IMG/VR virus record: IMGVR_UViG_3300045988_126112
Coordinates: 96,001-160,000 of that record
Reading direction: 5' to 3' (one strand)
Source of the DNA: a virus
DNA: 64,000 nt
Shown here: positions 21,573-42,659 of the stretch, one piece after another
Layout: each line of letters begins with the position of its first letter
Position numbering within the stretch: the stretch's first letter is position 1
Made by a program: the position numbers and the translations under genes
The notes under the pieces: generated by a model
The model's input: the letters and a program-made list of their open reading frames with translations, nothing else
Told to the model about the DNA's origin: nothing
The model's database searches: none

Positions 21573-22278
21573 AATAACTCAACTCACTCTCTTCTGGAAA
21601 ATTTTTTCTTTTAGATACTTGATTATATTGAAATTTATTATAAAACATATTTAAGTATCTAATATTGATTTCAATTCTAGGTAATATGGAATAATACTTA
21701 TGTACTGACCCATCTATTATTAAATCATCATCAAGCCATACATTAGCATTAAACATATCTGTATATTTTTTACCAGCATTATCCCAGTCTGGTTTCTTTA
21801 TGGGTCTTATCATTCCCATTTCTGCTAAAAATGTATCAGCAGCGTTAAATCCTTTTGGTGTTTCTATATACATTGTAATATCTACAATGCATGGAGTACA
21901 TATTAAACTTTCTAACTCATCAAACTCTTCTTTTTCCATTAATCTTTTTATATACATATTATCTTCTTTTGCACATGGCATATAAACATGTATAAAATTA
22001 CTATTATTTTTTGCCATATCTGCTAAATTATATCTATTAACTAATCTAGCTCTTGGTCTTTCTGACCCTTCTGGTTCTTCATACAATACTACATTATAAT
22101 CTTTATAGTATAGATTATTAAGCATTCCATTTCTTTTTTCCAATATTTCATTTTGTTTCTTTTCATTTATATTTAATTTATCATACAAATAGCTTAATCT
22201 CTCATTATAATCTTGTGGAATATCACCATATTTATTATAATAATTGACAGCTTTTTCTATTCTACTTTTTTTACTCAC
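21559..22278 (-). CDS. rusA: RusA-family Holliday-junction resolvase-like protein
   Basis: The C-terminal block 'KKPDWDNAGKKYTDMFNANVWLDDDLIIDGSVHKYYS..PRIEINI' matches the RusA signature (PD.DN..K...D......DD..I......K.Y). GTG start 9 nt after GGAGG. Confidence 0.6.
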   Translation of the reverse strand: MSKKSRIEKAVNYYNKYGDIPQDYNERLSYLYDKLNINEKKQNEILEKRNGMLNNLYYKDYNVVLYEEPEGSERPRARLVNRYNLADMAKNNSNFIHVYMPCAKEDNMYIKRLMEKEEFDELESLICTPCIVDITMYIETPKGFNAADTFLAEMGMIRPIKKPDWDNAGKKYTDMFNANVWLDDDLIIDGSVHKYYSILPRIEINIRYLNMFYNKFQYNQVSKRKNFPEESELSYYGRK

Positions 22279-24544: not shown

Positions 24545-27500
24545 TTATTCAGTAGCTAATATTTCAAGTATATCTAAAATAGCTTGAGTATTACTTGTAT
24601 CACTATCAGTACTATTCATTCCTTTTTGTAATAATGAGAATATTTTTTGTGTCTTAGTTTTGTCAGTATCTGAAGATGTTTTAGTTGTTGGTTTTGTAGT
24701 TTTTGTCTTAGTTGCTGGTTTACCTGTTATTGATTTTTGTATTTCTGTTAATAAATCAACTACTTCTTTAATATTTTCAGTATTATTAGCGACTTTATTT
24801 AATACTGATACTATTATAGTAATAAGTTGTTTTAATACTTTTTCGTCAATTCCTTTATTTAAATTACTTATATTAGCATCAACTTTTTGGTCACTATCAG
24901 GGAATGATAAAGTAACTTTATCTAATGAATTCTTAGTACCACCATGAGCTGTTTTATCATAATATTTACTTGGATTTAAACTCTTACCATTATCTGTCAC
25001 TTCATAATGTAAATGTGAACCAGTACTTCTACCAGTTGAACCTACATTACCAATTATATCATTTTGTCTAACTTTTGTTCCTAATCCATAAGAAGATTGA
25101 TCTTTCATATGTGCAAATCTATGATCGATACCTTTCTTATCTCTTACAACAAGAGTATTACCAAATCCATATTTTTTATCTTTAAGATTTTCTACAACTT
25201 TTCCTGATACTGGTGATTTTATTGGTGTATTTTCTTTTGCAGCATAGTCAACACCAGTATGGAATTCATTATCTCTTATACCAAAATCAGATGATTTGAC
25301 TCCATCTAATGTATCTTGGAAATATCTATCAATATCTTTAGTAAGATCTGTATCTTCTCCTTTACCTTCAGATGTAATCTTGCTCTTAATGTCTGCTAAC
25401 CATTTTGTATAGAATTCTTTTGATATAGGATGTATATGGTCACTTCCTCTATAAGATGGTTTATCTATACTTCTTGAGTCAACTATGTTAACTGAGTTCT
25501 TAGATGCTATTCCTGGTAATGCTTTTTGTACTACTGGAACCCATTTTTTAGTTTTACCACCAGAAGGAGTAAATGTTTGTGTTAACACTATTTTACTCTT
25601 TGGAGATTCTTTCTTGATTTTGTTTATAAGTTTAGTATATTGCTTACTATACCAATCAGCATTGAAACTTCCACCGCCACTAATCCAGTCCGCATCATTT
25701 GTTCCATAATGTGTTATGATTACTGGAGGTTTTTTAGCAGCTGCTTTGGCAACATTTCCATCGCTAATACCTTTAGCAACTGTATCACCTATTGTAGCTA
25801 CTACTCTACTAGATGGTAATACTTTCATATCTTTAAAACCTTTAGCTATTGAGTCACCTAATATAACTGATTTATCAAAATCACTAGATGAAACTTTTGT
25901 TTTTACTGAACTGTAATCTGTACCACTACTTAAATCACTACCATCACTTGAACTTGAACTATCTGTTGTAGCATCACTTGCAGCTGGTGTATCAATATCA
26001 AATCCAAATAATTTCTTACTAAAGTTTATAGCAGCTGTAGCCATATCACTAAAGAATTCACCTGCTGTACTTCCAGTAGAAGTATCATCTCCACTTGAAG
26101 CTCCACCATGTGAAGCTGAGTAATTTCCAACACTAGCTTCAGGTAATGTATAGCTTCCTGTAGCTTTTTCAAATTTAGTTAACTTATTAGGATTTTTTAT
26201 AGTTGGTGATACTTTCTTATCTCCATCTATAAATCTCTTACCAGTTAACCAATGGTTTTGAGACCAACTACTTCCAAGATTAGCAACTCTTATACCACTA
26301 AATCCACTTGAATCACTTGTAGTAGATTCTATATATTTATTATCTCCTAAATATAATGATGAATGTGAAACATTATCTTTATATTTAGTAGTACCATTTC
26401 TACTAGATCTAGTATTTTTAAATAATATAATATCACCAGGTTTAAGATCACCTTTCTTAACTTTAGTACCTCTACTACTTAAATATTGTTCTTCTGTATA
26501 GCCACCTATTTCAGTACCTGCAGCTCTGTCAAATACATGGTGAGTAAAGCTTGAACAGTCAGAAGCATTTCTATTTTTATTTATATAATCTCTATTTGGT
26601 TGAGAATAATAGAATCCTTTGTTTAAGAAAGATAAAGCATATTCTATAATCTTAGAACTTAATTTAACTTTATCATCACCTTTACCATATCTTTCATCGT
26701 CACCTTTACCAGTACTAACAAAGTTTTCAAAGTTAACTAACTTACCATCTTTAAGATATTTCTTATAGATAGTTTGTGCAGTTTTAGCTCTAGTTCCTCC
26801 ACCAACTCCTCTTTCGAAGAATTTATTAAACTTAGAACCAGCTTGATATGCATCAGTTTCATTTAAGAATCCATTAAGTCCTTTCTTTGGATATTCTTGG
26901 TTAAGCCATACCTTATGAGTACTATCTTGTAATTGATCCCATAAGAATGCCATTTGAGCATCTGTATCTGACCATTCCAAATTCATAGATTTTGCTATTT
27001 TTTTCAATTTATCAAAGTTATTATATTTGCGTATCCATTGGAATAATCCAAAATAAGTACCAGTTTTATCTTTACCATCAGCTTTTGGATTAAAACTACT
27101 TTCACACCAAGCATTACCTAAAACACCTGCAGATGCAGCATCTGATGCACCTTTAGCTTTAGTAAATTTTAGTATTTTTTCTGCAACATTTTTAGCTGAT
27201 ATATTAGATTCATCACTAGATGAACTACCATATTCTGAAGAACTTGAATCATCTGTTGTAGCATCACTTGCAGCTGGTTCATCAATATTAAATCCAAATA
27301 ATTTCTTAGTAAAGTTTATAGCAGCTGTAGCCATATCTCCAAAGAAATCACCTGCTGTAGTTGTAGCAGTAGTATCTTCTGTAGCAGTTCCATCACTTGT
27401 ACCATCTGAAGTTCCATCAGAACCATCATTTACTTCAGTAATTTCTCCTCCTACTTTATCCATATATTCTTTAAATGATAATGAACTTCCTTTAAGTTTA

Positions 27501-30500
27501 TAATGTTTACCTTTAGTTTCAGTATAATAATTTAAAGGATCGACTCCATTACGACTCTTACTTGTACCACCTTTTAGAACTTCTAAATGAACATGAGGAC
27601 CACTAACATGACCAGTAGCACCAGAAATACCTAAAAGTTGACCTTGTTTAACTGAATCACCTTTCTTAACTTTTTTACTCTTCATATGAGCAACTCTATA
27701 GAATGTATTACCACTATTAGTTTTTATAGTCAATGAATTACCATAAGAACTATGTTCATTTTCACTATATACAGTTCCTGATTTAGGAGCATATAATGGT
27801 TGGAAATGAACGTTATAGTCTAATGCACCATGGTCACCTCTAGCTGTAGCATATTGAGATCTTTTTTCACTAAAGTAAGAAGTTATACTTCCTTTACTTG
27901 GATCACAGAAATAACCCCAATCTACACCTTCACCCATACCATAATAAGGATTAGTTAAATCTACTATATCTGGACCTTTACCTGCACTTCCATCTTTACC
28001 CATAAATGTAATATTACCTTTACAGTTTTGGAAGTTTTTATAATCTGATGCACTAACTAGAATATCTATTCTATATACACCATTTACAATTTTTATAGCT
28101 CCACCTCTATCTGTAACTGTATATATTTTACCATCTAATGATGTACCAGTATTTGATATCTTTATTTTAGTACCAACAGGAACATCTGCAGGAGCAGCAC
28201 AAGTTTGTTCAGCAGGGTTTAGAGGATTACCTTTACAATCATAGAATCCACCTTCCATAGAATCGTTATGAGGATAGTATGCTGTAAAAGATGCTTTAAC
28301 AGATTTACCAACTTTATAGTTAGTACCTGTATATCTAGTACATTCACTTCCAGGTGAACCAGAAGAACTACTAGATGTAGTATCTGTACTTGCTTCACTA
28401 ATATCAAATCCAAATAATTTCTTACCAAAGTTTATAGCAGCTGTAGCCATATCTCCGAAGAAATCATCACCATTGCTACCAGTAGCTTCAGCACCAGTAT
28501 CTTCACTAACACCTTCACTTGAAGATCCACTACTTTCTTGACCGTCTGTACTTCCTACTTTCTTAACTTTACTTTCATCTACTTTATAAGTTTTATCACC
28601 TATTTTGAAAGCAAATCTAAATCCAGTACTAAGTTGTGATTCAGATCTAGCACCTGAGAATCTAGAACCTCTAGGGTCATTTATTACATAACCATCTTTA
28701 GTTTTACCAAACAATGCTAAATAATGTCCATTAGGTCCATATGGAGTTAATAAACAGTTTTTAGACCAGTTTGAACTCTTAGAGCATCTACCATCTATAA
28801 TTAAAGGATAACCTTTAGCAGCTAATTCTTTAGTTTTTGATAATGAACTAATATAAGTTACACTTGTATTATATTTTTTACCATAGTAATTAAATAATCT
28901 TGAAGAATCTGTTACACCAGCAGTAGGACTCCATCCATGACTCTTTCCTTGTGCACACATATCTTTAGGATTTAAAGTTTTACCAGTTACTTGCCCAAAT
29001 GCCATTGCAGCTGAAGTTGGACCACAACCAGCTTTTAATATATTTCCTCCAAATGCTACTTGAGACCAATAAGGGAATCCATTTACATATGTTAATGTAG
29101 TAGGGTCTGAACCTTTACCAGCAAAATTTGGATCTTCTAAAGCTAAAGCTTTACTATCTTTGCTAGATAACATAACTTGTTCAGCATCTTTAATATCTTC
29201 TTTATAACCTGTATCACCAAACACCCATGCATGTTTAAATCCTTTCTTTAATTGACTTTCATCATAAGATTTAGAACCATTAATACTTGATGGGTCATTT
29301 ACTATATAACCATTTTTATTACGACCAAACATTGCAACTATATGTCCATCTGAATCAGTTCCATATAAATTACCACCTTCACCAGATATAACCATTGGAA
29401 CTCCACGACTAGCATATTGTTTTATTTGTTCGAAATTATCAATTGATTTAACTTTTATTCCATATTTGTTTCCTAAATATGGGAACATTGAATCTGTTGA
29501 ACCATTATCATCATAAACTCCTGCATTGTAAGTTTCATCTGCTACTTCATTAGGAGTTATCATTTTACCAGTAACTTTACTTAAAACCATTGCAGCTGAA
29601 GTTGGACCACAGCCAGTTTCACTAAGTTCTGGTTTCTTTTTATCTGTATTATAATCTTTATATTGGCTAAAATAAGGGAAGTTATTTACTCCTAAATAAG
29701 AATCGTCAGTTTGAGAAACCTCAGCTGGATCTTTACCTTTACCAACGTATTCTCCTTTACCAAATAATCCACCAAACCAGTTAAGACCACTAGCTACAGC
29801 ATTTTTAACAGTATTGTAAACATTACCAACAGCGTTACCAGCTTTCTTAACTACAGATTTAACACCACTTGCTACATTATGAACAACATTACTTACACCA
29901 CCAGTTACTTTACTAAATAATGATTGTGCACCATTTTTTATTTTATTAAGTATTCCACCTGAAGCAGATGTTGAACCAGTTAGATTTTCAGCTATACTAG
30001 TTATAGTATCTGTAGTGGCATTTGTAGACATAGATTTAAGATTAAATTCTTTAACTATTTTATCAGCTTGTTTCTTTAATGTATCAATATCTTGAGGACC
30101 TTCACCAAATACTGGCATTACATAATCTTGTATTAATTTTGCCCAATCTGTATTTGGAAGTAATTTATCTATTACGAATCTTCCATTTATAGTAGCTAAT
30201 ATTGCAGCACATGCTTTCATACCAGTAGTATAAGTATCATAAATACCTATATATTTAGCTGGATTATTAAATGCATTAACAAAATTAGATATTAAGAAAG
30301 ATATATTACTTACATTAGCATTAGATACTATTGCTCTAAGATATCTATTTAGGTTAATAGATTTATTCTTTTCACAATTCATTTTTAATTTCTTGATTAC
30401 TTGTGGAACAAAGTTTCCTAAAAGTACACTTGCTGCACTATATTGACTACTACTAGCATCACCAAGTAAATTAATTATAGTATCATTATTAAATATTTTA

Positions 30501-33500: not shown

Positions 33501-36500
33501 CCTATACCTAAAGCCATAAGTAATTTACTTAACCAACCACCAGATTTCTTTTCTTCATCTTCTTCTTTTTCATTTTTCTTAAATAATCCAGAGAAACTAT
33601 CATAGAATGCTTCTTGTTTTTCTCTTAATCTTTGAGCTATTCTAATTGATTTTCTAGTTGATGAATCTGTTGAATCTGTTTCATATTGACCAGTTTTACT
33701 ATCACGTTTCATTACAACTTCATTACCTTCAGCATCTAATATAGATTTCTTCATGTCATCAGATAATCCGTCTTTAACTTCACTAGTATCTACTGATTTT
33801 TTAATTTTTTCAACTGCTGTTTCATCTTGTTGTTTCTTAGCTTCTTCTTCACCAGTTTTCTTTACTTCATCTTCTTTAGCCTTTTTAGCTTCAGCTTCTT
33901 CTCTATATTGTTTCATTATATCTTTATATGAAACTGTACGATATTTCTTAACATAAGTTTGTAAATCAGCTAAAGGCATTTTTCTAACAAAATCAGGTTG
34001 ATCATCTAAAGATTTAATACCAATTCTTCTTAATAGTATTTGACGTTTCTTTTGATCTAAAGATAATACTTGTTCATCTCTATGAACAGCATCATCTAAT
34101 TCTATTTTAGAATTAGCTCTTCTTTGTTGGAATTCATCTCCAGTTTTAAAATCTCTTATTTGTTCAAGTAACTTATTAGTTTCGTCTTGTTTATCAGTAA
34201 GAGATTTATTAAGATCTGTAATACCTTTGATTATTTCAGTTATCTTCTTATTTCTCTCATCATCTTTAATATCTTCTGGAGTTATAACTTTACCTTTAAG
34301 ATTTCTAAGTCTATCTTCAGATATCGCTAATTTACCAAAAGTTTCTAAAGATAATTCTTTTCCTAATTTTGTTGAATTTCTAGCTAATTCTTTTACTTTT
34401 CTTTCATAAGCATTTTTACCTTTTTCTTTATCAAGTCTTAAATCTTCAGTTATTTTAAATTCATTCATTAAGTCCATTATCTTATTAAAGTCAGCATTAT
34501 CATCTAATTTAATTCCTTGATCTTTAGCAAGTTTTCTTAAATAATTTATAGCCATTTCAGATTGACCATAATTTAATCCACCTAAGATTATATTTCTATC
34601 TTTAATCTTTAATTTACCATTTGCACCGATATTCATATTTTTAAGTAAAGCTGTTATTTCTTTTCCAGCTTTTATTTTATTCTTTTCATATTCTTTATCA
34701 GTAACACCAAAAGCTTTATATTGATTAACAAATTCTCCAAGTTGGTCATTTGTCATTGATGCTAATATTTTATCAGCTTCATCATTATTATAACCATTAT
34801 CTTTTACCTTCTTATTATATTTATCTCCATATATATTTTGAAGGTATTCTTCACGAGTTACTTTACTATTTGGATTAGCTTTCTTATAAGCTTCAAATTG
34901 TTCATCAACTTGATTTTTTACATTATCAGCAGCTTCTTTTCTTTCATAGTAAGTATCTCTTAATATCCTAGAACCATAATATTTTTTATAATTTGAAGTG
35001 TCTTTAAGCATATTTTGCATAACTTTCTTACTTTCTTCGTCTTTAACATCTCCAAATCTTTTCTTAATTAAATCTTGAGCTTGATCATGGAAACCAGTTC
35101 TCATTAAGAATCTTAATTTATTGGCATCTTTTTTACCAAATCTTTTTTCCATTTCTTCTGCAGCATTATTAAATGAATCTCTTTTAATCTTTTGAGATTG
35201 ATCATAGAAGAAATCCATTTCATTTTGATTATTCATATAATTAAGTCTTTCTTCTGCTGTCATATCATCAGCTGTACCAACTCTTATTTGATGTCTTTGA
35301 GTTGCACGTCCTATTCCACCTAGTATTCTAGCTGGAGTAGATATAATTCTACCAACTGTTCCTAATAAACGTTTACCTAAATTCTTAAATGGACTAAATA
35401 TAGTACTTAAGAATTTACCAACTTTTTCTTTTATTGGAACAACTAAAGTTTTATTGAAGAAATTAATTATACCTTTAGCTATACCACCAAATACTGTTTT
35501 AAACATTATACCAATTTGTTTTGTTATAGGTTTAAAAGCATCTTTTAATGGTTTTAATATATCACGTTTAGCCCAATTAATAAATGGACTAAATATTTTA
35601 TCTTTCATGAAACCTATTAATCCACCTTCTTGTTCTCCAGTTTGTGGATTATAAGTACCAAATATCATTTCTTTAAATTTATCTGTAGTTGATGCATATC
35701 CTAAAGCTGAACCTATTAAGATACTACCAAGTACACCAAATGGACCACTTAGATGTAACATGTTTAATCCAAATCCTACACCAGCACCTGCTAATATATT
35801 AGGAAGATTCTTCTTAAATTTATTCCATCTATCTTCTCCTATAATACCTGTTTCTCCGAATAATCTATTTTGTATAGTTGCATTATTTTTAGCTACACCT
35901 AATGCAGATCCTATTAATAATCCAGGAACTGGACCTAAAGGATTTAAAGCAGTAAAGCCAGAAAGTAAACCAACTATACCATATTTTTTCATATCTGGGA
36001 ATGTTTTAGCAACTGTATTGACAAAGTCTTTAGGTAATAATCCTCCTTTACGTCCGATATAATTACCATCTTTATCAAATTCTTTTTCACCAAATAACAT
36101 TGCTTGTACTTTTGCACTATTTTTAGTTAATGCTATACCAGAACCTACAGCTGCTCCTAATAATGGACCACCTATAAATCCTGTAAGTAATGATGCTCCA
36201 CCACCTAATAATGCTCCAGATACAACATCTGGTCCATATAGTTTAGCTTCACCCATTACTTCTTTCATTGCATTTGCTGATACTTTTTTATCTTTCTTAC
36301 CGTCTTTATCTCCAACAATAGCTTCCATAGTTTTATTAATAGCTCTTTTATAAACTTGGAATGTTTCAGAGAATATATTAGTATAATCTCCTGCTACACC
36401 TTTATCAGTTTGATTACCAGAATTATTAATAACTCCTTCATTACGTTGATTCAAGGCTTGTTGAGTTATTTTAGCTATTTTTACAAAGTGTTTTTGTTGG

Positions 36501-39500
36501 TCTTCATTATCTAAATTAGCAAAATCATTACCAACTTCTCCACTTCTTCCAAGCATAGATATTATAATATTAGGATCTACATTATCAGCTCCCATTACAG
36601 CAGCTATATTTTGATATAAATATTTAGCTTGGTCATGCACTTTATTATCTTTCCATTTACCTGATTGAACTTTAGCCATAGCTTCTCTTATTTGATTAGC
36701 TATTTGATTACGTTTATCACCTGTAAGTGAAGGAACAACAGTTTCACCTTTACCTACTATAGCTAATTGATCTTTATCTATTACTCCACCTTTAGCAAAT
36801 CCTGGTATACCAACTCTACCAAAATATCCTTTAACTGCATTTTGTATATCAGTAGTTAATCCATCCATAAAATCATTTAATACTGCTTGTTCATTTCCTG
36901 CTTCTATATTTCTTAAAGGATTTTGCATAAATGGTGTTATTCTAGGACCAGGTTTAAATTGGTTCTTATTACCATTTCCTTGTAAAAGATTTAATATTTG
37001 TTTCAAAGTACTATCTATACTTTCAGTAGTAGAAGTTTGAGTTTGCATAGATTCTTTTATAAATTTATTATCTGTAATAAATTTAGAACCACCTTCAGTA
37101 AGATTATCAGACCAAGGTCTATCTTTATCTAATTGATCTTCAGGTCTTTCTTTAGATTGATTATATTTCTTAATTCTATCAAAAGCATCTAAAGCTTCTA
37201 TATCTTCTACACCATTACCAGTATCTAAAGTTCCATCTTCTTTTAATCCTAATGCATCAGTAATAAATTCTGTAAGTTCATTAAATGTATCTTCAACATC
37301 TTCTATTTGTCTAGATAATTCTTTTATACGTTTATTAGCTGGAGCATTTTCAGACATTTTATAACCTGTACCTTTTTTATTATATATCTTTTGTTTAGCT
37401 CTTATAGCAACATCTTTCTTATCACTTATATCTTTTATAACACTATCTTTTTGACCTAATATATCTTTAATAGTTATACCTTCAAAATTATCAGCATAAT
37501 TTGAATCTCTATCTTTAAATAATTTATCTATAGATTTAGATACAAAATCATACATATCTCCATCTTCGCTGCCTAATATTCCTGCAAATGAATCAAGTAA
37601 TTTTTGTTTAGCAGTTTTATCATATTGTAAATCTAATCCAGCTATAGATCTTGGATCATTTTTATTAAGATTAGATTCACCAGTTTCAATCATCTTTTCT
37701 ATTTCAGCTATTTGTTTATTTAAATCTTCTGATTCTCCATTAAGAGAAACTTCACTTAATAAACCTTGATATCTATTATCTAATGTAGCTAAATATCTTA
37801 ATGCTGGTAAACTCATATCATTTGAACGAATTGATTGTTCAATTTGTTTAGTCAATTTATCTATTTTTTGTTTTTCTATCTTTTGTAATAATTCGGTATT
37901 GACTTTTCTCATACCATTCTTTTTACCATCTTTAGTAACTCCATTAAAGTTTCTAAATCTACCTATCTCAGTACCGTTTTGTTTTTCTAATTCTTTAAGT
38001 CTATCTTGAGATTTCTTTAATTGATCAACAACATTCTTATCTTTACCAGTTAACATTTCTTCAGCTAATCTACGTTGTTCTTCTATTGGAAGATTTTTAA
38101 ATTCAGAGCTTTGGAAATATTCATAAGCTTGTTCATTAAGAACATTTTGTCTTTGTCCTATATCATATTTATTAAAATTATTCTTATTAATAATATTCTC
38201 TCTAGCATTATCATAATCTAATAATTCTTGTTCGATATTTTGATTACTATCTCTCATTTCTTTTAATCTTTTCATTGCTTTATCTAATCTGTCATTAAGT
38301 TTAGCTATTGTATCTTTACATTTCTTTATTTCAGCTTTGACTTTTTTAGCTTTAATTTGTTGCTGTTTATTTCTACTTTTTCTTAAAGCTAAATATTGAG
38401 TATTGTAATCATTTAAATCTTTAGTAACTGATCTAATTTGTTGTCTTAAAGTCATTACTGACATATTAAGAGATCTATATTCTTTTATATCTTTTAAATT
38501 CTTAGTTTCTTCATCTAATTCTTTTAATTCAAGTTTAATATTATTTATATCAAACATATCATTTATATTATTAGATTCACCACTTTGAACTTTTCTAGCA
38601 TGCTCAATACTTCTCTTAGTTTTATCAAATTTTTGTTTTCCATTAAGATTATCATAATTATCAAAATCATAATTTCTTAATATCTTTGTAACTGTTGTAG
38701 TTATATCATCTTCATCAAATTCTTCTTGATTATTATCTTCTTTCTTTTTATCAAAAAAGTTTTTAGATTTGAATAAATTAGTTAATGGGCTAAATACATC
38801 TTTAACAGAATCAGTTATAGAAGTACCGATACCTTTAAGAGTATCACTCATTTTTTCTCTAACTTGTTTAAAGAAATCTTTAGCTCCTTGTTTCTTTTCT
38901 TCCAATCCAAACATTTCAGATATCTTACCATATATACCTTTTATAAGTCCTTTATCTTTATCTAATCCTAATCTATCTTTTAATGGATTAAGAATCTTTT
39001 CATCCATAAATTCATTGAAATGATTAAAAGATTTTTTCATTTCAAAAAGTAAATGATCTAATATGCCTTTAATAGATTTCTTACCATTTTCTCCTTCTTT
39101 ACCATATATTAATTCAAATAATCCTTGATCTACTTTTACAGCTAAATCAGTCATTATTGAAGAAGGACGTTTAATATATTTTTGAGCTTTTTCAGCAAAC
39201 TTATCAAATTTAGAACTAAATGATTTACCACTTAATCCCATTTCTTCTTTAAGTTTATCAAATTCAGTCTTTTCTTTTTCAGCTTCTTCTCTAAGTTTAT
39301 CTTTATTTTTATTAGTTTGAACGTTGCTTCTAACAGCTCCTCTAACAGTTTCATCATCTAAATCAGATATATTAACTAATAATTCTCCTTTTTCTAATCT
39401 TCTAGCTTGTTGTCTTAAAAATGTTTTATTAGCTCTATCTCTTTCAAGTGCTTTTTTAGTACTTTCACTCATCTTTTCATTTTCACTTCTTGTATCTTTT

Positions 39501-41671
39501 ATAGCTGTTTCAGATAGTGATCTAAAACCTCTATCATATCTTTGAGTATAAGTATTACCATCAGCATCAATTATATCGTAATTTTGTACTAAATCCAAAG
39601 GCATACCTTGGATATTTCCTCCACCACCAAATCCTTGAGCTGTTATACGTCTCATATAATTTAATTCTTTATACATACTTTGCATATAGAAGAATATATT
39701 CTTACCATAATTATCTTTAGTATCTAATAAAAGATTAGTATTAAAAGAAGTCTTTTCAGCTTTTTTATTTTTCTTACCATTTAATTCTTTAGCAAATTGA
39801 TTATGATTAGCATTATTAAATAAATATGCATATTGTCCACTTTTTTCTATATCTTTAAAACGTCTAGTTTGATTGCCATATTGATCTTGCATATCTGCAT
39901 TATATTGCATCATAATATTTCTTGGTAATTCTCTTAATATAGATTGTATAGCTAATAAATTCTTTTCACTAACACCATAATCTAAATATTTTTCATTAAA
40001 ATTATTCTTTTGATAATCAATTATTTCACCTTTGTTATATGAAGTTTCAAATAGTTTTTCTAAATCTTTAAAGAATTGATCATATTCTTCTTTACTACCA
40101 AAAGCTAAATTTTTATTAGCTATTTCTCTTACTTGTTGCATAGGTTCAGATGCAGCACTTTTCCAGAAAGAATTTTTCATATTATCAAATTCTTTTTTCA
40201 TTTCATCATAAGTAACAAATTTACCTGTTTCATAATTAAATGTAGTTTCTTGACTTCCTGTAAGAGCTGATAATATTTTGCTTAATTGTTGTGGTATAAC
40301 TTCAGTTAAAGCTTTTTGAGATTTACCATTCCAATCAACTTTACCTTTGTCATATTGAGAAACATCTACACTAGTTTTTGGTGAATTTTTTATACCAAAT
40401 ACTTTTCCAAGCATTTTTTCTAGCATACTATCTTCAGAATTAGACATAGTATTTAATTTTGTAACCATAGATGCAAAGAATCCACCTATAGTTTTATTCA
40501 TATTATTAAATGCTTTTTCTAAATCTTTAGGTGTCATTCTATTAATCATAGAAGATAATAAAGCACCATATGGGTTTGCAGCAAATAATGCAAGCATATT
40601 ACTATTTTCACCAGTACCTTGCATCATCATATTCCAAGCTCCACCTGTTAATTCATTAAGATAAGAATTTGAATTTTTCATTATTGTTTTACCATATGCA
40701 ACTAAATCAGGCATACCACCAGCATCAACAACATCATTATATCCAATTTTATTTTTCTTACCTTCTTCACTATTAGTAGTAGCTTCAATCTTTCTAGTAT
40801 TCTCAGCTATTTCTCTTAATAATGAAACTTGATCTTGTAAAGCTTTACTTGTATTTGTAAAGAACTCAGTTGAATTTGATAAATGAGGTGTCAAATTTTT
40901 ATCCAAGTATTGCATTACGCTACCAATATTACTATTCATAGCATCTAAATGACCATTCATAATACCAAAAGCTTTAGTATTTTGAGTATATAAAAGATTT
41001 GTATTTTTTATATTTACTTTAGATGAGTATTCAGCACTTCTAGCAACAGCCATAGATATAGCGTTAGCATTAGCTTGTGATGTATTTTCTATACTACTAA
41101 TAGTTGCTAATGTTTCTTGAGCAGTTCCACTAGTTTTACTACCACTAGATGATGAATCAGTAGCTTCATCATCCCAATTATCGTCAAAATCAGAAAAATC
41201 ATCGTCCCAATCATCTAGATTTAAATCTCCAAGATCAGCACTAAGATTATCATCAAATCCAGAGCCCATGTCATCACTAAGCCCCATTTGTTTCATTTCC
41301 ATTTTTTCAAGACGTTCTTTATTATAAAGATTACCTGTCATTATATCTTCTTTAAGTGCTCTTAATCCTACATCAGCAGCTTCATAGAATTTAGTTTTCA
41401 TGATAGCATCTAATCCACGTCTATAAGTAGTACGATAATCCATAGCAGATTTGTATATTGTTTTAAATAAATCATTATTAGTATCAGAGAAATCTGATAT
41501 AACTGGATTCATTTGTTTCATCTTTTCAACAGCAACATATGTTATAGATTTACCTACATTATAAAGATATCCTTGTCTTTTACCTAATTTTTGTTTATTA
41601 GTTTCAACTTTAGGTTTTCTACTAGCATTCTTCTTTAATTGCTTAACAGCACTAGGACTTTTATTTGCCAT
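24545..41671 (-). CDS. Giant tape-measure-like virion protein (5,708 aa) with a C-terminal array of nine predicted peptidoglycan or cell-wall hydrolase domains
   Basis: One uninterrupted 17,127-nt ORF with SD AAAGGAGGT. The N-terminal ~2,000 aa are K/E-rich and coiled-coil-like. It has Gly-zipper hydrophobic segments and W/G repeats typical of tape-measure proteins. Recognisable catalytic motifs follow (listed as separate domain features). Confidence 0.8.
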   Translation of the reverse strand: MANKSPSAVKQLKKNASRKPKVETNKQKLGKRQGYLYNVGKSITYVAVEKMKQMNPVISDFSDTNNDLFKTIYKSAMDYRTTYRRGLDAIMKTKFYEAADVGLRALKEDIMTGNLYNKERLEKMEMKQMGLSDDMGSGFDDNLSADLGDLNLDDWDDDFSDFDDNWDDEATDSSSSGSKTSGTAQETLATISSIENTSQANANAISMAVARSAEYSSKVNIKNTNLLYTQNTKAFGIMNGHLDAMNSNIGSVMQYLDKNLTPHLSNSTEFFTNTSKALQDQVSLLREIAENTRKIEATTNSEEGKKNKIGYNDVVDAGGMPDLVAYGKTIMKNSNSYLNELTGGAWNMMMQGTGENSNMLALFAANPYGALLSSMINRMTPKDLEKAFNNMNKTIGGFFASMVTKLNTMSNSEDSMLEKMLGKVFGIKNSPKTSVDVSQYDKGKVDWNGKSQKALTEVIPQQLSKILSALTGSQETTFNYETGKFVTYDEMKKEFDNMKNSFWKSAASEPMQQVREIANKNLAFGSKEEYDQFFKDLEKLFETSYNKGEIIDYQKNNFNEKYLDYGVSEKNLLAIQSILRELPRNIMMQYNADMQDQYGNQTRRFKDIEKSGQYAYLFNNANHNQFAKELNGKKNKKAEKTSFNTNLLLDTKDNYGKNIFFYMQSMYKELNYMRRITAQGFGGGGNIQGMPLDLVQNYDIIDADGNTYTQRYDRGFRSLSETAIKDTRSENEKMSESTKKALERDRANKTFLRQQARRLEKGELLVNISDLDDETVRGAVRSNVQTNKNKDKLREEAEKEKTEFDKLKEEMGLSGKSFSSKFDKFAEKAQKYIKRPSSIMTDLAVKVDQGLFELIYGKEGENGKKSIKGILDHLLFEMKKSFNHFNEFMDEKILNPLKDRLGLDKDKGLIKGIYGKISEMFGLEEKKQGAKDFFKQVREKMSDTLKGIGTSITDSVKDVFSPLTNLFKSKNFFDKKKEDNNQEEFDEDDITTTVTKILRNYDFDNYDNLNGKQKFDKTKRSIEHARKVQSGESNNINDMFDINNIKLELKELDEETKNLKDIKEYRSLNMSVMTLRQQIRSVTKDLNDYNTQYLALRKSRNKQQQIKAKKVKAEIKKCKDTIAKLNDRLDKAMKRLKEMRDSNQNIEQELLDYDNARENIINKNNFNKYDIGQRQNVLNEQAYEYFQSSEFKNLPIEEQRRLAEEMLTGKDKNVVDQLKKSQDRLKELEKQNGTEIGRFRNFNGVTKDGKKNGMRKVNTELLQKIEKQKIDKLTKQIEQSIRSNDMSLPALRYLATLDNRYQGLLSEVSLNGESEDLNKQIAEIEKMIETGESNLNKNDPRSIAGLDLQYDKTAKQKLLDSFAGILGSEDGDMYDFVSKSIDKLFKDRDSNYADNFEGITIKDILGQKDSVIKDISDKKDVAIRAKQKIYNKKGTGYKMSENAPANKRIKELSRQIEDVEDTFNELTEFITDALGLKEDGTLDTGNGVEDIEALDAFDRIKKYNQSKERPEDQLDKDRPWSDNLTEGGSKFITDNKFIKESMQTQTSTTESIDSTLKQILNLLQGNGNKNQFKPGPRITPFMQNPLRNIEAGNEQAVLNDFMDGLTTDIQNAVKGYFGRVGIPGFAKGGVIDKDQLAIVGKGETVVPSLTGDKRNQIANQIREAMAKVQSGKWKDNKVHDQAKYLYQNIAAVMGADNVDPNIIISMLGRSGEVGNDFANLDNEDQQKHFVKIAKITQQALNQRNEGVINNSGNQTDKGVAGDYTNIFSETFQVYKRAINKTMEAIVGDKDGKKDKKVSANAMKEVMGEAKLYGPDVVSGALLGGGASLLTGFIGGPLLGAAVGSGIALTKNSAKVQAMLFGEKEFDKDGNYIGRKGGLLPKDFVNTVAKTFPDMKKYGIVGLLSGFTALNPLGPVPGLLIGSALGVAKNNATIQNRLFGETGIIGEDRWNKFKKNLPNILAGAGVGFGLNMLHLSGPFGVLGSILIGSALGYASTTDKFKEMIFGTYNPQTGEQEGGLIGFMKDKIFSPFINWAKRDILKPLKDAFKPITKQIGIMFKTVFGGIAKGIINFFNKTLVVPIKEKVGKFLSTIFSPFKNLGKRLLGTVGRIISTPARILGGIGRATQRHQIRVGTADDMTAEERLNYMNNQNEMDFFYDQSQKIKRDSFNNAAEEMEKRFGKKDANKLRFLMRTGFHDQAQDLIKKRFGDVKDEESKKVMQNMLKDTSNYKKYYGSRILRDTYYERKEAADNVKNQVDEQFEAYKKANPNSKVTREEYLQNIYGDKYNKKVKDNGYNNDEADKILASMTNDQLGEFVNQYKAFGVTDKEYEKNKIKAGKEITALLKNMNIGANGKLKIKDRNIILGGLNYGQSEMAINYLRKLAKDQGIKLDDNADFNKIMDLMNEFKITEDLRLDKEKGKNAYERKVKELARNSTKLGKELSLETFGKLAISEDRLRNLKGKVITPEDIKDDERNKKITEIIKGITDLNKSLTDKQDETNKLLEQIRDFKTGDEFQQRRANSKIELDDAVHRDEQVLSLDQKKRQILLRRIGIKSLDDQPDFVRKMPLADLQTYVKKYRTVSYKDIMKQYREEAEAKKAKEDEVKKTGEEEAKKQQDETAVEKIKKSVDTSEVKDGLSDDMKKSILDAEGNEVVMKRDSKTGQYETDSTDSSTRKSIRIAQRLREKQEAFYDSFSGLFKKNEKEEDEEKKSGGWLSKLLMALGIGKGLLGRAKGLLGGILGRGAIGGLFTRGIFGTIGKGALVIGGLMYLPEIIDLFKTKIGPAISENWDTTIKPWLTEEALPRLKDGLVLLVQEIPSLLKGTVKFIGSELIPSILKGMGWDIGTDDQEVTYDENGNPVNKGGKGTTSAAAVIGNTAVRSTVRKGARYASAVKTSVAKNIAKEGEVKTLTKSLSKEGVEEITEGAVKSGFKGGAKDIARAGFKTAKDFILHPVKTSVKGAVKGAKTVTNAGGKILGNKFLKMDAKRIAKRGGLSNKMEGKILTNVANSGLVSQLLNWAKNQFTKLFTNSTVVNLLGKVKNIPVAKALLERAVPKMLEVISKGAVKMSGTALARVVGGIGTGGLVTLGFAVYDFISGFKDARNIMGITEDNVPFGYRIISGVVKTIQGLSIIATLLPTKTIMSILINVLSGIGVDMGNIKQQQAQAQQELKEYNEKNGTNFSLEEYNKEVKGHKGLFDRAKDTAKWAGGKISETGKWIGNGAKNLGGKAIKGLKWLDQATLKGIGKWVDVNKWVGGKALEGLKWVNDNGINWAGDKMAGALTAMGNGAGQLWNGAKWLGNQAINGIGAGGKMLENGFNTAKNWTGNMLLSGVKGGANLMAKGLSAAANGIVDTPKMIGSLYNSISDWGKGILDGLTKQLSGWYDKNIKPVLDGIGKKFNDIKDWCSKFIQDPIKAIGEGFQSLLDWFKNKFGWVMKSKDWVSDKWNDAKSAAGNAWDTVKNGVKNVFTKKPSKDTNAKVSDIKTVNGMKVGKGEGDVVNGNPYFSQKQASGQFGQMINDAGCGPTSTAMALSKVTGKDISPESIAKDAYKNKTWDSEGARGNMFATEAKKYGVKTVSSGGNFEKFDKMVSAGIPTAVSGTLGKGEDSPYTKAGHIVTVFGKDKNGNYLVNDPRGKKYSKAYSKEELMNGFRDSWSFGKGDDDSSNSVPSSERVIGNVRNTIKSVAPSALSSSFRKKSTLALNHITKSVSGTGMIESASKVLEEIFTKIFNNDTIINLLGDASSSQYSAASVLLGNFVPQVIKKLKMNCEKNKSINLNRYLRAIVSNANVSNISFLISNFVNAFNNPAKYIGIYDTYTTGMKACAAILATINGRFVIDKLLPNTDWAKLIQDYVMPVFGEGPQDIDTLKKQADKIVKEFNLKSMSTNATTDTITSIAENLTGSTSASGGILNKIKNGAQSLFSKVTGGVSNVVHNVASGVKSVVKKAGNAVGNVYNTVKNAVASGLNWFGGLFGKGEYVGKGKDPAEVSQTDDSYLGVNNFPYFSQYKDYNTDKKKPELSETGCGPTSAAMVLSKVTGKMITPNEVADETYNAGVYDDNGSTDSMFPYLGNKYGIKVKSIDNFEQIKQYASRGVPMVISGEGGNLYGTDSDGHIVAMFGRNKNGYIVNDPSSINGSKSYDESQLKKGFKHAWVFGDTGYKEDIKDAEQVMLSSKDSKALALEDPNFAGKGSDPTTLTYVNGFPYWSQVAFGGNILKAGCGPTSAAMAFGQVTGKTLNPKDMCAQGKSHGWSPTAGVTDSSRLFNYYGKKYNTSVTYISSLSKTKELAAKGYPLIIDGRCSKSSNWSKNCLLTPYGPNGHYLALFGKTKDGYVINDPRGSRFSGARSESQLSTGFRFAFKIGDKTYKVDESKVKKVGSTDGQESSGSSSEGVSEDTGAEATGSNGDDFFGDMATAAINFGKKLFGFDISEASTDTTSSSSSGSPGSECTRYTGTNYKVGKSVKASFTAYYPHNDSMEGGFYDCKGNPLNPAEQTCAAPADVPVGTKIKISNTGTSLDGKIYTVTDRGGAIKIVNGVYRIDILVSASDYKNFQNCKGNITFMGKDGSAGKGPDIVDLTNPYYGMGEGVDWGYFCDPSKGSITSYFSEKRSQYATARGDHGALDYNVHFQPLYAPKSGTVYSENEHSSYGNSLTIKTNSGNTFYRVAHMKSKKVKKGDSVKQGQLLGISGATGHVSGPHVHLEVLKGGTSKSRNGVDPLNYYTETKGKHYKLKGSSLSFKEYMDKVGGEITEVNDGSDGTSDGTSDGTATEDTTATTTAGDFFGDMATAAINFTKKLFGFNIDEPAASDATTDDSSSSEYGSSSSDESNISAKNVAEKILKFTKAKGASDAASAGVLGNAWCESSFNPKADGKDKTGTYFGLFQWIRKYNNFDKLKKIAKSMNLEWSDTDAQMAFLWDQLQDSTHKVWLNQEYPKKGLNGFLNETDAYQAGSKFNKFFERGVGGGTRAKTAQTIYKKYLKDGKLVNFENFVSTGKGDDERYGKGDDKVKLSSKIIEYALSFLNKGFYYSQPNRDYINKNRNASDCSSFTHHVFDRAAGTEIGGYTEEQYLSSRGTKVKKGDLKPGDIILFKNTRSSRNGTTKYKDNVSHSSLYLGDNKYIESTTSDSSGFSGIRVANLGSSWSQNHWLTGKRFIDGDKKVSPTIKNPNKLTKFEKATGSYTLPEASVGNYSASHGGASSGDDTSTGSTAGEFFSDMATAAINFSKKLFGFDIDTPAASDATTDSSSSSDGSDLSSGTDYSSVKTKVSSSDFDKSVILGDSIAKGFKDMKVLPSSRVVATIGDTVAKGISDGNVAKAAAKKPPVIITHYGTNDADWISGGGSFNADWYSKQYTKLINKIKKESPKSKIVLTQTFTPSGGKTKKWVPVVQKALPGIASKNSVNIVDSRSIDKPSYRGSDHIHPISKEFYTKWLADIKSKITSEGKGEDTDLTKDIDRYFQDTLDGVKSSDFGIRDNEFHTGVDYAAKENTPIKSPVSGKVVENLKDKKYGFGNTLVVRDKKGIDHRFAHMKDQSSYGLGTKVRQNDIIGNVGSTGRSTGSHLHYEVTDNGKSLNPSKYYDKTAHGGTKNSLDKVTLSFPDSDQKVDANISNLNKGIDEKVLKQLITIIVSVLNKVANNTENIKEVVDLLTEIQKSITGKPATKTKTTKPTTKTSSDTDKTKTQKIFSLLQKGMNSTDSDTSNTQAILDILEILATE
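24950..25340 (-). other. M23 metallopeptidase domain, copy 2 (within the giant CDS; approximate bounds)
   Basis: 'HTGVDYAA...' and 'GSTGRSTGSHLHYEV', the HxxxD and HxH motifs of the LytM/M23 family. Confidence 0.8.
25390..25880 (-). other. SGNH/GDSL-type esterase domain (within the giant CDS; approximate bounds)
   Basis: Block I 'ILGDSIAKG', block III 'HYGTNDA', block V 'SDHIHP' (DxxH). This pattern fits SGNH hydrolases such as peptidoglycan O-acetyl-esterases. Confidence 0.7.
25961..26066 (-). repeat. Intragenic linker cassette, copy 3 (encodes 'AGEFFSDMATAAINFSKKLFGFDIDTPAASDATTD')
   Basis: About 93% nucleotide identity to copy 2 over ~107 nt by hand alignment (8 mismatches). Confidence 0.9.
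26270..26640 (-). other. NlpC/P60 cysteine peptidase domain (within the giant CDS; approximate bounds)
   Basis: 'ASDCSSFTHHVF' (catalytic Cys), 'KPGDIILF' and 'VSHSSLYLGDNKYIE' (catalytic His). Confidence 0.75.
26770..27190 (-). other. Lysozyme-like domain ('phage tail lysozyme' or transglycosylase type; within the giant CDS; approximate bounds)
   Basis: 'AGVLGNAWCESSFNP...GLFQW' resembles the G(I/V)LGN..(E)S motif of tape-measure-associated lysozyme-like domains. Confidence 0.55.
27251..27357 (-). repeat. Intragenic linker cassette, copy 2 (encodes 'AGDFFGDMATAAINFTKKLFGFNIDEPAASDATTD')
   Basis: Shares 'atctgttgtagcatcacttgcagctgg...aaatccaaataatttctta.taaagtttatagcagctgtagccatatc' with copy 3. 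Confidence 0.9.
27535..27900 (-). other. M23 metallopeptidase domain, copy 1 (within the giant CDS; approximate bounds)
   Basis: 'DHGALDYN' and 'GATGHVSGPHVHLEV' (HxxxD and HxH). Confidence 0.8.
28050..28340 (-). other. 3D (Asp-Asp-Asp, MltA/RlpA-like) domain (within the giant CDS; approximate bounds)
   Basis: 'FTAYYPHNDSMEGG...CAAPADVPVGTKIKI...GKIYTVTDRGGAIK...RIDILV' matches the typical layout of 3D domains in Firmicute cell-wall proteins. Confidence 0.6.
28385..28468 (-). repeat. Intragenic linker cassette, copy 1 (encodes 'DDFFGDMATAAINFGKKLFGFDISEASTDTT')
   Basis: Shares the core 'atatcaaatccaaataatttcttaccaaagtttatagcagctgtagccatatctcc.aagaaatca' with copies 2 and 3. Confidence 0.9.
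28600..29100 (-). other. C39-like (papain-fold) cysteine peptidase domain, copy 3 (within the giant CDS; approximate bounds)
   Basis: 'FPYWSQ...AGCGPTSAAMAF' (Cys codon about 29024-29026) and 'NGHYLALFG...YVINDPRG' (His codon about 28724-28726). Confidence 0.65.
29215..29700 (-). other. C39-like cysteine peptidase domain, copy 2 (within the giant CDS; approximate bounds)
   Basis: 'FPYFSQ...TGCGPTSAAMVL' (Cys about 29609-29611) and 'DGHIVAMFG...YIVNDP' (His about 29342-29344). Confidence 0.65.
30715..31190 (-). other. C39-like cysteine peptidase domain, copy 1 (within the giant CDS; approximate bounds)
   Basis: 'NPYFSQ...AGCGPTSTAMAL' (Cys about 31112-31114) and 'AGHIVTVFG...YLVNDPRG' (His about 30836-30838). 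Confidence 0.65.
35700..36240 (-). other. Cluster of three Gly-zipper hydrophobic segments (within the giant CDS)
   Basis: 'GALLGGGASLLTGFIGGPLLGAAVGSGIAL', 'GLLSGFTALNPLGPVPGLLIGSALGVA' and 'AGAGVGFGLNMLHLSGPFGVLGSILIGSALGYA'. Such segments are typical of tape-measure proteins. More occur near 33350-33545 and 32390-32470. Confidence 0.7.
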
Positions 41672-41946: not shown

Positions 41947-42471
41947 TTATTTTTTATTTTTCAAATGTTTTGGACAAGGAGAACTTGCTTTTACACCTTT
42001 ATGAGCTGGTGTTATAGATTCACCTTTGTCATAAGTTCCATCTTCATTTTTCTTAGGGAAATATGCAACTTTTTCTTCTGTTTCTTTAAGCATAAAGCTT
42101 ATATCAGAATCTGCTTTGCAGCCTAAAGATATTTTTCTTCCTGTATCTAAATATCCTAGCATGAATTCTTTAGATATATCTACTAAATTACTAGCATCTG
42201 CTTTTGTGAATTGCATGTTATTAGCTAATTCTTGAGCTTCTGCTGATGGTATTGAAGCACCTTTATTTATTATTGATGCTGCTAATTGTACTGCATTATC
42301 ATGTGGGCAACATTCTCTAACTACTTCACCTACATTATTATATTCTGCAGTCTTAAACTCTGGGTCATTTATCATTGCATGCATTACATCTCTTTCATCT
42401 TTTTTACTTTGTCCTTTTTGAGTTAATCCTTCATTAATTTCACTTATTAATTTTCTAGCGTTGAATTCCAT
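41947..42471 (-). CDS. Hypothetical protein occupying the position where a tail-assembly chaperone is usually found (upstream of the tape-measure-like gene)
   Basis: 174 aa with strong SD TAGGAGGT. The chaperone idea rests on position only; I saw no slippery site and no overlapping -1 frame. Confidence 0.6.
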   Translation of the reverse strand: MEFNARKLISEINEGLTQKGQSKKDERDVMHAMINDPEFKTAEYNNVGEVVRECCPHDNAVQLAASIINKGASIPSAEAQELANNMQFTKADASNLVDISKEFMLGYLDTGRKISLGCKADSDISFMLKETEEKVAYFPKKNEDGTYDKGESITPAHKGVKASSPCPKHLKNKK

Positions 42472-42483
42472 AATTCTTACCTC

Positions 42484-42639: not shown

Positions 42640-42659
42640 ATTATTTCTTTTCCTTTCTT

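Follow-up and report, generated by a model that had tools for sequence, protein, structure and literature searches.

A 5,708-Residue Protein of the phiKZ gp181 Family with Nine Predicted Lysin Modules in an AR9/phiKZ-Type Jumbo Phage

The DNA analysed here is a window of 64,000 nucleotides (nt), positions 96,001 to 160,000 of the IMG/VR virus record IMGVR_UViG_3300045988_126112, in which a single uninterrupted open reading frame (ORF) with an ATG start (24545..41671, minus strand) encodes a protein of 5,708 amino acids (aa); the gene and its product are called below the megagene and the megaprotein. The megaprotein carries nine catalytic modules, which represent six enzyme families and lie between aa 3500 and 5567, and is assigned to the gp181 family of tail lysins and putative tape measures. 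It is probably a virion protein of an AR9/phiKZ-type jumbo myophage that is mostly helical, lies in the lumen of the tail tube with its C-terminal tail docked at the central baseplate, and is expelled on contraction.

Catalytic Modules

Pfam scans were run on segments of the protein, with a score above the gathering cut-off taken as support, and eight of the nine modules pass it. Three C39-like cysteine peptidases match PF13529 (Peptidase_C39_2), at aa 3500–3630 (30782..31174, 66.8 bits; this and all further features lie on the minus strand unless stated), aa 3997–4127 (29291..29683, 65.7 bits) and aa 4198–4333 (28673..29080, 40.3 bits). They are followed by an MltA-like ('3D') lytic transglycosylase (aa 4438–4567, 27971..28360); a first M23 metallopeptidase (aa 4614–4703, 27563..27832; PF01551, 67.9 bits; PDB M23 matches to E = 4e-15); a phage tail lysozyme (aa 4829–4972, 26756..27187; PF18013 Phage_lysozyme2, 88.5 bits over 139 of 140 profile positions); an NlpC/P60 cysteine peptidase (aa 5033–5123, 26303..26575; PF00877, 47.1 bits), whose PDB match 7cfl (E = 1.6e-10) is a C. 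difficile wall hydrolase; an SGNH/GDSL esterase (aa 5271–5415, 25427..25861; PF13472 Lipase_GDSL_2, 38.9 bits against a cut-off of 32.9); and a second M23 metallopeptidase (aa 5470–5567, 24971..25264; PF01551, 88.9 bits; PDB matches to E = 1.9e-20). A first-pass annotation, made from the sequence without database searches, had named the modules from short signature strings and proposed profile searches for C39, M23, lysozyme, NlpC/P60 and SGNH; every quoted string is present, and those searches return the eight modules above the gathering scores.

The residues expected of working enzymes are in place. Both M23 modules keep the zinc motifs of active enzymes, HxxxD and HxH (HGALD/HVH and HTGVD/HLH), and their PDB matches include LytM, lysostaphin and ShyA; the NlpC/P60 module has its catalytic Cys and His (DCSSF, SHSSLY), the tail lysozyme its CES motif, the SGNH module blocks I, III and V (GDS, GTND and DHIH), and the transglycosylase the motifs ADVP, TDRGGAI and RIDIL. 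In P0008, an intact collinear relative of 5,717 aa on a 92.9-kb contig that is 47% identical overall to the window protein, all catalytic motifs checked in the nine modules are kept, with a single conservative change, Asp to Glu, in the first of the transglycosylase motifs. Retention of the motifs at 47% identity argues for purifying selection on each activity, and all nine modules are predicted to be apparently active enzymes.

Two of the assignments need comment. The '3D' segment (aa 4400–4580) has no match to any Pfam family at E ≤ 0.1, the 3D model PF06725 included, so the 3D label of the first-pass annotation does not hold as a Pfam assignment; the module itself is real, since it matches the diffocin hub-hydrolase CD1368 (PDB 8v3w_H, E = 6.6e-10) and is 46–72% identical to wall hydrolases of C. 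difficile or Terrisporobacter phages. It has been reported that the matched part of CD1368 is an MltA-like lytic transglycosylase lobe, which is paired with an NlpC/P60 endopeptidase lobe (PMC10996793). The SGNH module scores 32.7 bits in a long scan, just below the cut-off that it passes as a segment, and it counts against a role in the wall-degrading set that its only NCBIfam match, to acetylxylan esterase/polysaccharide deacetylase, is sub-threshold (E = 6e-4, 18.8 bits against a cut-off of 500).

Substrate of the C39-Like Modules

The three C39-like modules had been counted as wall-degrading in the first-pass annotation, and of this claim the enzyme family stands while the substrate is less firmly based. 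Besides the PF13529 matches, the Cys/His/Asp triad is invariant in the 18 family sequences aligned (18/18), and an AlphaFold2 (AF2) model (predicted local distance difference test score, pLDDT, 79.8) has a papain-like fold. A PDB sequence search with a single C39 module gave chance matches only; the C39 family profile has the pseudomurein endoisopeptidase PeiR as its best solved match (E = 9.5e-7), followed by the C39 domain of ComA (E = 8e-4). It has been reported that PeiR-like enzymes are C39-family viral endolysins (PMC11375127). A wall role is weakened by the model, which matches staphopains, the CdiA-CT papain-like toxin, the double-glycine peptidases ComA, PCAT1 and LahT, and PeiR at similar scores; it fits protein-cleaving peptidases equally well, and the modelled fold alone does not decide between a wall and a protein substrate. 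C39 is the sole module kept in most orthologues; because AR9 has a lysozyme in that place, a wall-directed role would be favoured, and the C39-like modules may degrade the wall.

An alternative is that the megaprotein is a self-processing lysin polyprotein, in which the C39-like modules are double-glycine-type proteases instead of wall enzymes and cut at (F/Y)-G-(K/R)-G-(E/D) junctions, either in tail maturation or after ejection, freeing the lysins from a helical carrier. This motif occurs at almost every module boundary (aa 3489, 3655, 3971/3977, 4185, 4564, 4988/4996 and 5436), so that G-K/R-G sequences bracket almost all modules; the modules of the relative L093 are bracketed likewise, and the motif flanks the single C39 in about two thirds of 21 orthologues, over a background of about one per 500–700 aa. 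The junctions keep alive a self-processing role of C39, but they read G-K/R-G and not the canonical G-G/A/S, four relatives (L016, L018, L043 and L062) have C39 without enrichment of the motif, and two (L064 and L007) are enriched though without a detected C39. Superposition of the C39-like model on the double-glycine peptidase domains (ComA, PCAT1, LahT) gives target-normalised TM-scores of 0.67–0.75, and the family profile also reaches ComA, yet its top sequence match is the cell-wall isopeptidase PeiR. Similarly, the retention of C39 as the one module of most orthologues speaks for a processing function, but a lysozyme replaces it in AR9 and processing needs fewer than three copies. Cleavage of tape-measure proteins is known for lambda gpH and T5 pb2, which lends the polyprotein some further support.

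On balance, we regard such a self-dismantling polyprotein as unlikely, though worth keeping in mind. Its tail-lumen carrier would bring a mixture of free wall enzymes to the site of infection, and conserved amphipathic helices in the linkers between modules would keep the array bundled in the tube until release; if true, such delivery would follow a logic new for virion-associated lysins and would give a function to the module that most family members retain. The possibility that the G-K/R-G junctions are phiKZ prohead-protease sites was considered separately and rejected, as they do not fit the S/A/G-X-E site of that enzyme.

Integrity of the Reading Frame

The first-pass annotation had described one uninterrupted 17.1-kb ORF, and this description is upheld by the start signals of the gene and by intact relatives. 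The runner-up among the ORFs of the window is 1,505 aa long, far below the megagene. The window DNA has a G+C content of about 26–33%, and since random DNA of such composition is estimated to contain a stop every 12 codons or so, 5,708 open codons cannot have arisen by chance. A strong ribosome-binding site, AGGAGG, lies 7 nt 5' of the ATG (the sequence before the ATG is AAAGGAGGTAATCAAA), and the hairpin terminator of the preceding gene is at 41759–41730. In addition to P0008, its cluster mate P0158 is an intact relative of 5,722 aa on a 239.6-kb contig, so that intact collinear relatives (5,717 and 5,722 aa) come from two to three independent assemblies; the neighbours of P0008 also match those in the window, in the order 171-aa ORF, 5,717-aa gene, 710-aa gene and RusA.

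The ORF is not intact in every sampled genome, which tells against its universality. In L048 (OGPA01001092.1), a 97%-identical metagenomic contig, the megagene has lost 7 nt at aa ~1574 and a net 23 nt at aa 2418–2431 (contig positions 6470–6490 and 8990–9030, equivalent to window ~36950 and ~34380–34420). The gene is thereby broken into two ORFs, of 1,576 and 822 aa, and a third piece without a convincing start codon; the deletions total 30 nt and return the last piece to the original frame. In L002 (ENA ERZ27302292 k141_1387468), which is ~50% identical over the first 1,000 residues, one in-frame TAA stands at 13490–13495, the position of aa ~1164, and the homology runs on in the same frame on either side of it; the TAA could be an error, a nonsense allele or a read-through codon. 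We read both forms as defective or erroneous alleles of a gene that is a large mutational target.

The same observations bear on the idea that the megagene is an artefact of assembly or annotation, with several neighbouring genes fused because the repeated linkers were misassembled or because stops were missed. Three linker repeats do exist in the megagene, L048 has three ORFs in place of one, L002 carries its in-frame TAA, and Staphylococcus relatives divide the function between two genes. However, the linker copies are just 60–80% identical in DNA, too diverged for misassembly, and misassembly across them is rejected on that ground; P0008, an independent assembly at 47% identity, has the same module order, as has L048 up to aa 4342, where that locus ends; P0158 sits on its own long contig; and the lack of a usable start in the third L048 piece makes the broken form look defective and not ancestral. 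An artefact is therefore considered very improbable, and the megagene is treated below as one gene.

Relationship to phiKZ gp181 and Gene Neighbourhood

The conserved N-terminal region of the megaprotein (aa ~30–540, 40052..41584) is the signature of its family, found by tblastn and by profile comparison with hhalign. By tblastn it matches AR9 g204, PBS1 gp95 and BpSp gp263, all three with aa 266–539, and also JD-Fnp gp101, and weak homology to JD-Fnp4 gp101 lies in two stretches, aa 344–499 and 1896–2120. A 35-sequence profile of the region matches phiKZ gp181 residues 364–526 in hhalign with a probability of 90% (E = 1.7e-6); the same profile has no sequence match in the PDB. It has been reported that phiKZ gp181 is a structural, tail-associated peptidoglycan hydrolase (PMC5380687). 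The layout of phiKZ, in which the RNA polymerase (RNAP) beta genes gp178 and gp180 diverge from gp181 (2,237 aa), which gp182 follows, is the same in the window. Here, a jumbo-phage multisubunit RNAP beta-like subunit of 1,505 aa is encoded divergently at 44212..48729 on the plus strand (phrog_3148, E = 7e-141), and the gene downstream of the megagene (22339..24480) encodes a 713-aa homologue of the gp182 baseplate spacer (BLASTP to phiKZ gp182, E = 2e-18; to JD-Fnp4 gp102, E = 3e-35; phrog_20401 match). In phiKZ, gp182 forms a hexameric spacer ring between the tube initiator and the hub of the central baseplate (PMC13250141). A RusA resolvase gene (21559..22278, PF05866) comes next; RusA holds the same position in AR9, BpSp, JD-Fnp1/4 and the relative L092, and the order of a large gene, a 490–780-aa protein and RusA is found in AR9, BpSp and JD-Fnp1/4, with the same order in L092.

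Because of the profile match, the conserved synteny (gp182-like gene, RusA and divergent RNAP beta), the conserved N-terminal region and the conserved C-terminal tail, the megaprotein is the orthologue of phiKZ gp181, AR9 g204 and JD-Fnp4 gp101, and its gene neighbours are those of an AR9/phiKZ-type jumbo phage. The window also encodes several PHROG 'virion structural protein' genes, a ribonucleotide reductase and a thymidylate kinase in addition to RusA. A megablast search against 50,697 phage genomes gave no DNA-level match, and tRNA and Rfam scans of the whole window found nothing.

Several further features of the neighbourhood were noted. The gp182-like protein bears an extra N-terminal SH3_3 domain (PF08239, aa 17–62), of a kind that is typically wall-binding. 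Upstream of the megagene lies a 174-aa ORF (41947..42471) with no family match and no similarity to AR9 g203; ORFs of 170–174 aa occupy the same place in L048, L002 and L092. Between this operon and the RNAP beta gene, the 1.7 kb at 42472–44211 contain no ORF of at least 150 aa; in L002, five genes of 42–170 aa are called upstream of the homologue, the largest of which (170 aa) matches the 174-aa ORF, while the other four occupy the counterpart of the 1.7-kb stretch. Near the virion-protein genes, in the region 10054–13535 (minus strand) with 8897–9970 and 13539–15943, stand three tandem paralogues of 372, 381 and 382 aa with 29–31% identity, which resemble the families of paralogous head and inner-body proteins known from phiKZ-like phages.

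Non-Catalytic Body and Tape-Measure Role

The part of the protein before the modules is rich in features of a tape measure, that is, a long, largely helical body with hydrophobic and Gly-rich segments, and its gene lies beside that of the gp182-like spacer. A predicted helical region rich in Lys and Glu (K/E) extends over aa ~700–1560 (36992..39574, K+E 18–27%) and a second over aa ~2200–2700 (33572..35074); in composition windows, K+E is 20–27% across aa 800–1600 and 2200–2800. In an AF2 model of aa 1–1000, DSSP assigns nearly all residues to long helices, at a low confidence (mean pLDDT 44.8, from a seven-sequence alignment). The motif GFAKGGVIDKDQLAIVGKGETVVPS (aa 1626–1648, 36728..36796), read from the sequence and kept in P0008 and P0010, may resemble a motif common in tape-measure proteins. 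Hydropathy scans and inspection of the sequence give three copies of a Gly-zipper hydrophobic helix with xLFGE after it (aa 1815–1990, 35702..36229), which form the non-catalytic block most widely detected among family members; a second Gly-zipper cluster (aa 2713–2775, 33347..33535), whose surrounding 200-aa window is 61% identical to P0008; and a Gly-rich hydrophobic segment at aa 3069–3089 (32405–32467). Together with a further hydrophobic pair at aa 3116–3157, the last segment belongs to the first copy of a hydrophobic helical module (aa ~2986–3160, 32192..32716) recognised by a phmmer self-match. Repeats rich in Trp and Gly follow (aa 3191–3344, 31640..32101); Trp makes up 6% of the aa 3201–3400 composition window against ~0.5% elsewhere, and the repeats are poorly conserved in P0008 (20% identity). 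At the other end of the protein, an iterative hidden Markov model (HMM) search defines a conserved C-terminal tail (aa ~5590–5708, 24548..24904), with which 32 of 46 family members end, irrespective of the lysin array before it.

The first-pass annotation had listed the Gly-zipper clusters, the W/G repeats and the K/E-rich tract as tape-measure hallmarks; hydropathy and composition bear out each of them where it was placed, with the pair at aa 3116–3157 as an addition, while their reading as a tape measure gains from gp181 orthology and the baseplate neighbour but finds no tape-measure family match. A Pfam scan of aa 1–3500 in 400-aa pieces (E ≤ 0.1) gave no match, NCBIfam gave none above its cut-offs on the unassigned segments, and a homology search with aa 2650–3700 gave none either, probably because Gly-rich words filled the candidate list. 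The tape-measure role is accordingly plausible but unproven, and rests on orthology to gp181 and AR9 g204, on the gp182-like neighbour and on composition.

Several points weigh against a length-measuring protein in the tube lumen. Neither Pfam nor PHROG places a tape-measure family on the N-terminal 3,500 aa, aa 1–3000 have no PHROG match at all, and the PHROG 'tape measure' matches fall only on the M23 and lysin modules; Foldseek with the low-confidence model of aa 1–1000 gave no fold match below E = 1. Length scales loosely with the tail, as JD-Fnp4 has 2,978 aa for a tail of 300 nm and JD-Fnp1 3,026 aa for 335 nm. How a tail could accommodate at least three copies of a globular array of 240 kDa is hard to see. 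In addition, gp181 has been placed in the phiKZ tube lumen by no structure, and a 2026 structural atlas of phiKZ makes no mention of a tape measure (PMC13250141).

Another reading is that the megaprotein is not a tape measure but an ejected virion lysin or pilot protein stored in a baseplate cavity or in the head, comparable to T7 gp16 or to the 'needle' idea for phiKZ gp181, with another protein setting the tail length. Besides the missing family match and the poor scaling between JD-Fnp1 and JD-Fnp4, such a protein would suit the place of the gene directly after the portal gene in both of these phages and the presence of two such proteins in Staphylococcus jumbo phages, and gp181 has been portrayed as belonging to a needle-like device for puncturing cells and not as a ruler (PMC5380687). 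However, the megagene adjoins the gene of the gp182-like central baseplate spacer in all lineages, and the long helical body, the Gly-zipper helices and the conserved termini also speak against a stored lysin. The adjacency of the two genes mirrors the T4 order gp29–gp48. The resolved phiKZ spike, moreover, consists of gp164, gp163.1, gp101 and gp182 (PMC13250141), which leaves the lumen as the obvious remaining place. A protein that takes no part in length measurement is thus considered quite unlikely, and the tail-tube lumen the most likely location of the megaprotein.

Predicted Mode of Action

In the proposed model, the megaprotein would lie in the tube lumen with its conserved C-terminal tail next to the gp182-like spacer ring, and after sheath contraction the C-terminal array would leave the tube first. 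Two of the enzymes would then cut glycan strands and up to six would cut stem peptides or cross-bridges, while the SGNH esterase would probably strip O-acetyl groups that block the transglycosylase and the lysozyme. Removal of O-acetyl groups that block transglycosylases and lysozymes is established for Ape-type esterases. In the last step, the Gly-zipper helices would insert in the membrane and line a conduit for the DNA; T5 pb2 likewise serves as an analogy for such a lumen protein. The lumen and pore model is drawn by analogy with the diffocin tape measure (PMC10996793). If the 0.10–0.11 nm per residue of the JD-Fnp phages applied, the tail would be ~350–400 nm long if the non-catalytic 3,450 aa measure it, or ~570–630 nm if the whole chain does. 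Where the protein sits in the virion, whether it measures length, in which order its parts exit, what it cuts and which host it serves to infect are predictions of this kind, whereas the integrity of the gene, the domain identities, the conserved catalytic residues, the orthology with its synteny and the architecture across the family are observed.

Construction of the Array

The last 2,200 aa of the protein consist of larger units that recur. The hydrophobic helical module recurs as a second copy at aa 3660–3970 (29762..30694), an internal duplication with no Pfam or NCBIfam match; in phmmer, aa 3660–3970 self-match aa 2986–3275, and each copy lies 5' of a C39 module. A linker of 191 nt (64 aa), the direct-repeat family D1, is present in three copies (28306..28496, 27190..27380 and 25900..26090) with 60–80% DNA identity, each before a two-enzyme cassette; it encodes an acidic, Ser/Thr-rich stretch and the amphipathic helix FFxDMATAAINFxKKLFGF (FFGDMATAAINFGKKLFGF in the first copy), and analogous linker helices occur in the relatives P0011 and L093. 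The three cassettes pair the MltA-like transglycosylase with M23, the tail lysozyme with NlpC/P60, and the SGNH esterase with M23. Two such pairings have precedents, namely the lytic half of CD1368 and the Staphylococcus tail lysin with PF18013 and PF00877. The best explanation is that the three C39 copies arose by tandem duplication of a unit of hydrophobic module and C39-like peptidase, and that the three linker-led cassettes were added later.

Diversity within the Family

The N-terminal region is present in 86 metagenomic and IMG/VR loci, mostly on contigs of 150–290 kb and cut at 10-kb flanks; these were found by alignment-based scans, whereas single-sequence IMG/VR scans with the N-terminal or central region gave no relative. 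The orthologous ORFs are usually 2,800–4,300 aa long, many running off the 10-kb flank; after extension, one reaches ~5,025 aa, one ~4,581 aa, and six more at least 4,630–5,106 aa with N-ends still cut. In most orthologues there is one C39-like module, to which a lysozyme or M23 may be added. Larger arrays were found by a HMMER search with aa 4400–5599, over the whole of which P0008 is collinear. For instance, P0010 (4,681 aa) has three C39 modules, transglycosylase, NlpC/P60, lysozyme, M23 and an unassigned domain, and P0011 (4,234 aa) combines three C39 modules with M23, SGNH and that same domain; two to five modules occur in several proteins of 3,000–4,000 aa. In L093, C39 and Phage_lysozyme2 are above the Pfam cut-offs, a glucosaminidase and GDSL are below them, and an NlpC/CHAP-like module is seen by eye only; in L099, C39 and GH25 are above the cut-offs and a glucosaminidase below. 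Module counts in the family thus run from one to nine with differing enzyme sets, and the maximum of nine is held by the window protein and its closest relatives.

The lysin array is a variable insert, or 'cargo bay', just upstream of the conserved C-terminal anchor, with both ends of the protein fixed family-wide. Of the extreme all-in-one array put forward in the first-pass annotation, the nine modules are real and are the maximum seen, against one in cultured relatives; the architecture is not unique, as metagenomic orthologues commonly have 2,800 to more than 5,100 aa and one to eight shuffled lysin modules, several of them four to eight. The unassigned domain of the relatives' arrays, which is absent from the window, comprises ~180 conserved aa (FPKY...AEASL.ANLTDISG...RTLPRY..EHDCF) at aa ~3596–3680 and ~4009–4190 of P0010 and aa ~3127–3300 of P0011; Pfam gives no match for it, and it may act on the wall as a module not described before.

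Comparison with Known Systems

phiKZ gp181 shares with the megaprotein a homologous N-terminal region, the gp182 homologue downstream, the divergent RNAP beta, a long non-catalytic body and a muralytic part near the C-terminus, with sequence similarity limited to ~140 aligned residues. Unlike the megaprotein, which is 2.5 times longer and has nine modules, gp181 is described as a single glycosidase (PMC5380687). AR9 g204 and PBS1 gp95 (1,925 aa, annotated as tail tape measure or lysis domain protein) and BpSp gp263 share the tblastn match of aa 266–539, the gene order and membership of the multisubunit-RNAP jumbo group; they differ in having one VgrG3-like lysozyme (PF21277) and no C39, M23, NlpC/P60 or SGNH, at one third of the length. 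JD-Fnp4 gp101 (2,978 aa) and JD-Fnp1 gp176 (3,026 aa) of Fusobacterium phages, annotated as 'papain-like cysteine protease', have weak homology and the downstream genes in common with it, and these phages are myoviruses with tails of 300–335 nm; however, the proteins have a single, C39-like catalytic module and are roughly half as long, and their genes come immediately after the portal gene.

Other systems resemble the megaprotein in part. The 'giant' tape measure of Thermus phage P23-45 (5,002 aa, PMC10770324) is comparable in size and carries enzymatic cargo, but the cargo is an N-terminal RNA polymerase, the phage is a siphovirus with a very long tail, and there is no homology outside M23; phrog_23188, a 5,002-position profile with an M23 match, is the P23-45 tape measure as we infer from the matching length. 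CD1368, the hub-hydrolase of diffocin and of a C. difficile myophage, has a two-enzyme lytic half led by an MltA-like transglycosylase homologous to aa 4438–4567, and its pairing of transglycosylase and NlpC/P60 recurs in P0010; it differs as a 581-aa baseplate hub and not a lumen protein, and the megaprotein pairs its transglycosylase with M23. The AR9-related Staphylococcus jumbo phages (DC4, MarsHill group) have two neighbouring proteins of ~2,000 aa each, a 'tail lysozyme' and a 'tape measure', the tail lysin with the PF18013 and PF00877 pair of the second megaprotein cassette and the tape measure with M23, so that three modules in total are spread over two genes against nine in one.

Host and Significance

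For the transglycosylase module, the identity is 72% with a Terrisporobacter phage and 64% with a genome of Metaclostridioides mangenotii, and the relative P0004 is binned as Peptostreptococcaceae; because of these identities and this binning, the host would probably be a thick-walled low-GC Firmicute of the Peptostreptococcaceae, an assignment that we make tentatively.

A tail-lumen or tail-tip protein with muralytic domains is already well known, and the megaprotein is an extreme version of a gp181-type tail lysin, not a new kind of infection device. With 5,708 aa it is longer than the tape measure of P23-45 (5,002 aa), which is called giant in the literature, and its nine modules from six families are the largest wall-degrading set found in one phage protein. 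No tape measure with C39, M23 and NlpC modules was found in the literature searched, to which most subscription journals did not belong, and no description of a cargo-bay design was found in the available literature. The megaprotein exposes the design of an uncultivated AR9/phiKZ-type branch, in which conserved ends enclose a cargo bay that takes shuffled lysin cassettes with recurring linkers and junction motifs. It offers a natural library of linked, co-evolved lysins, probably directed against a clostridial-type wall, for enzybiotic work; a test of the amount of folded cargo that a contractile tail is able to hold and expel; and a route to what gp181-type proteins do in phiKZ-like virions.

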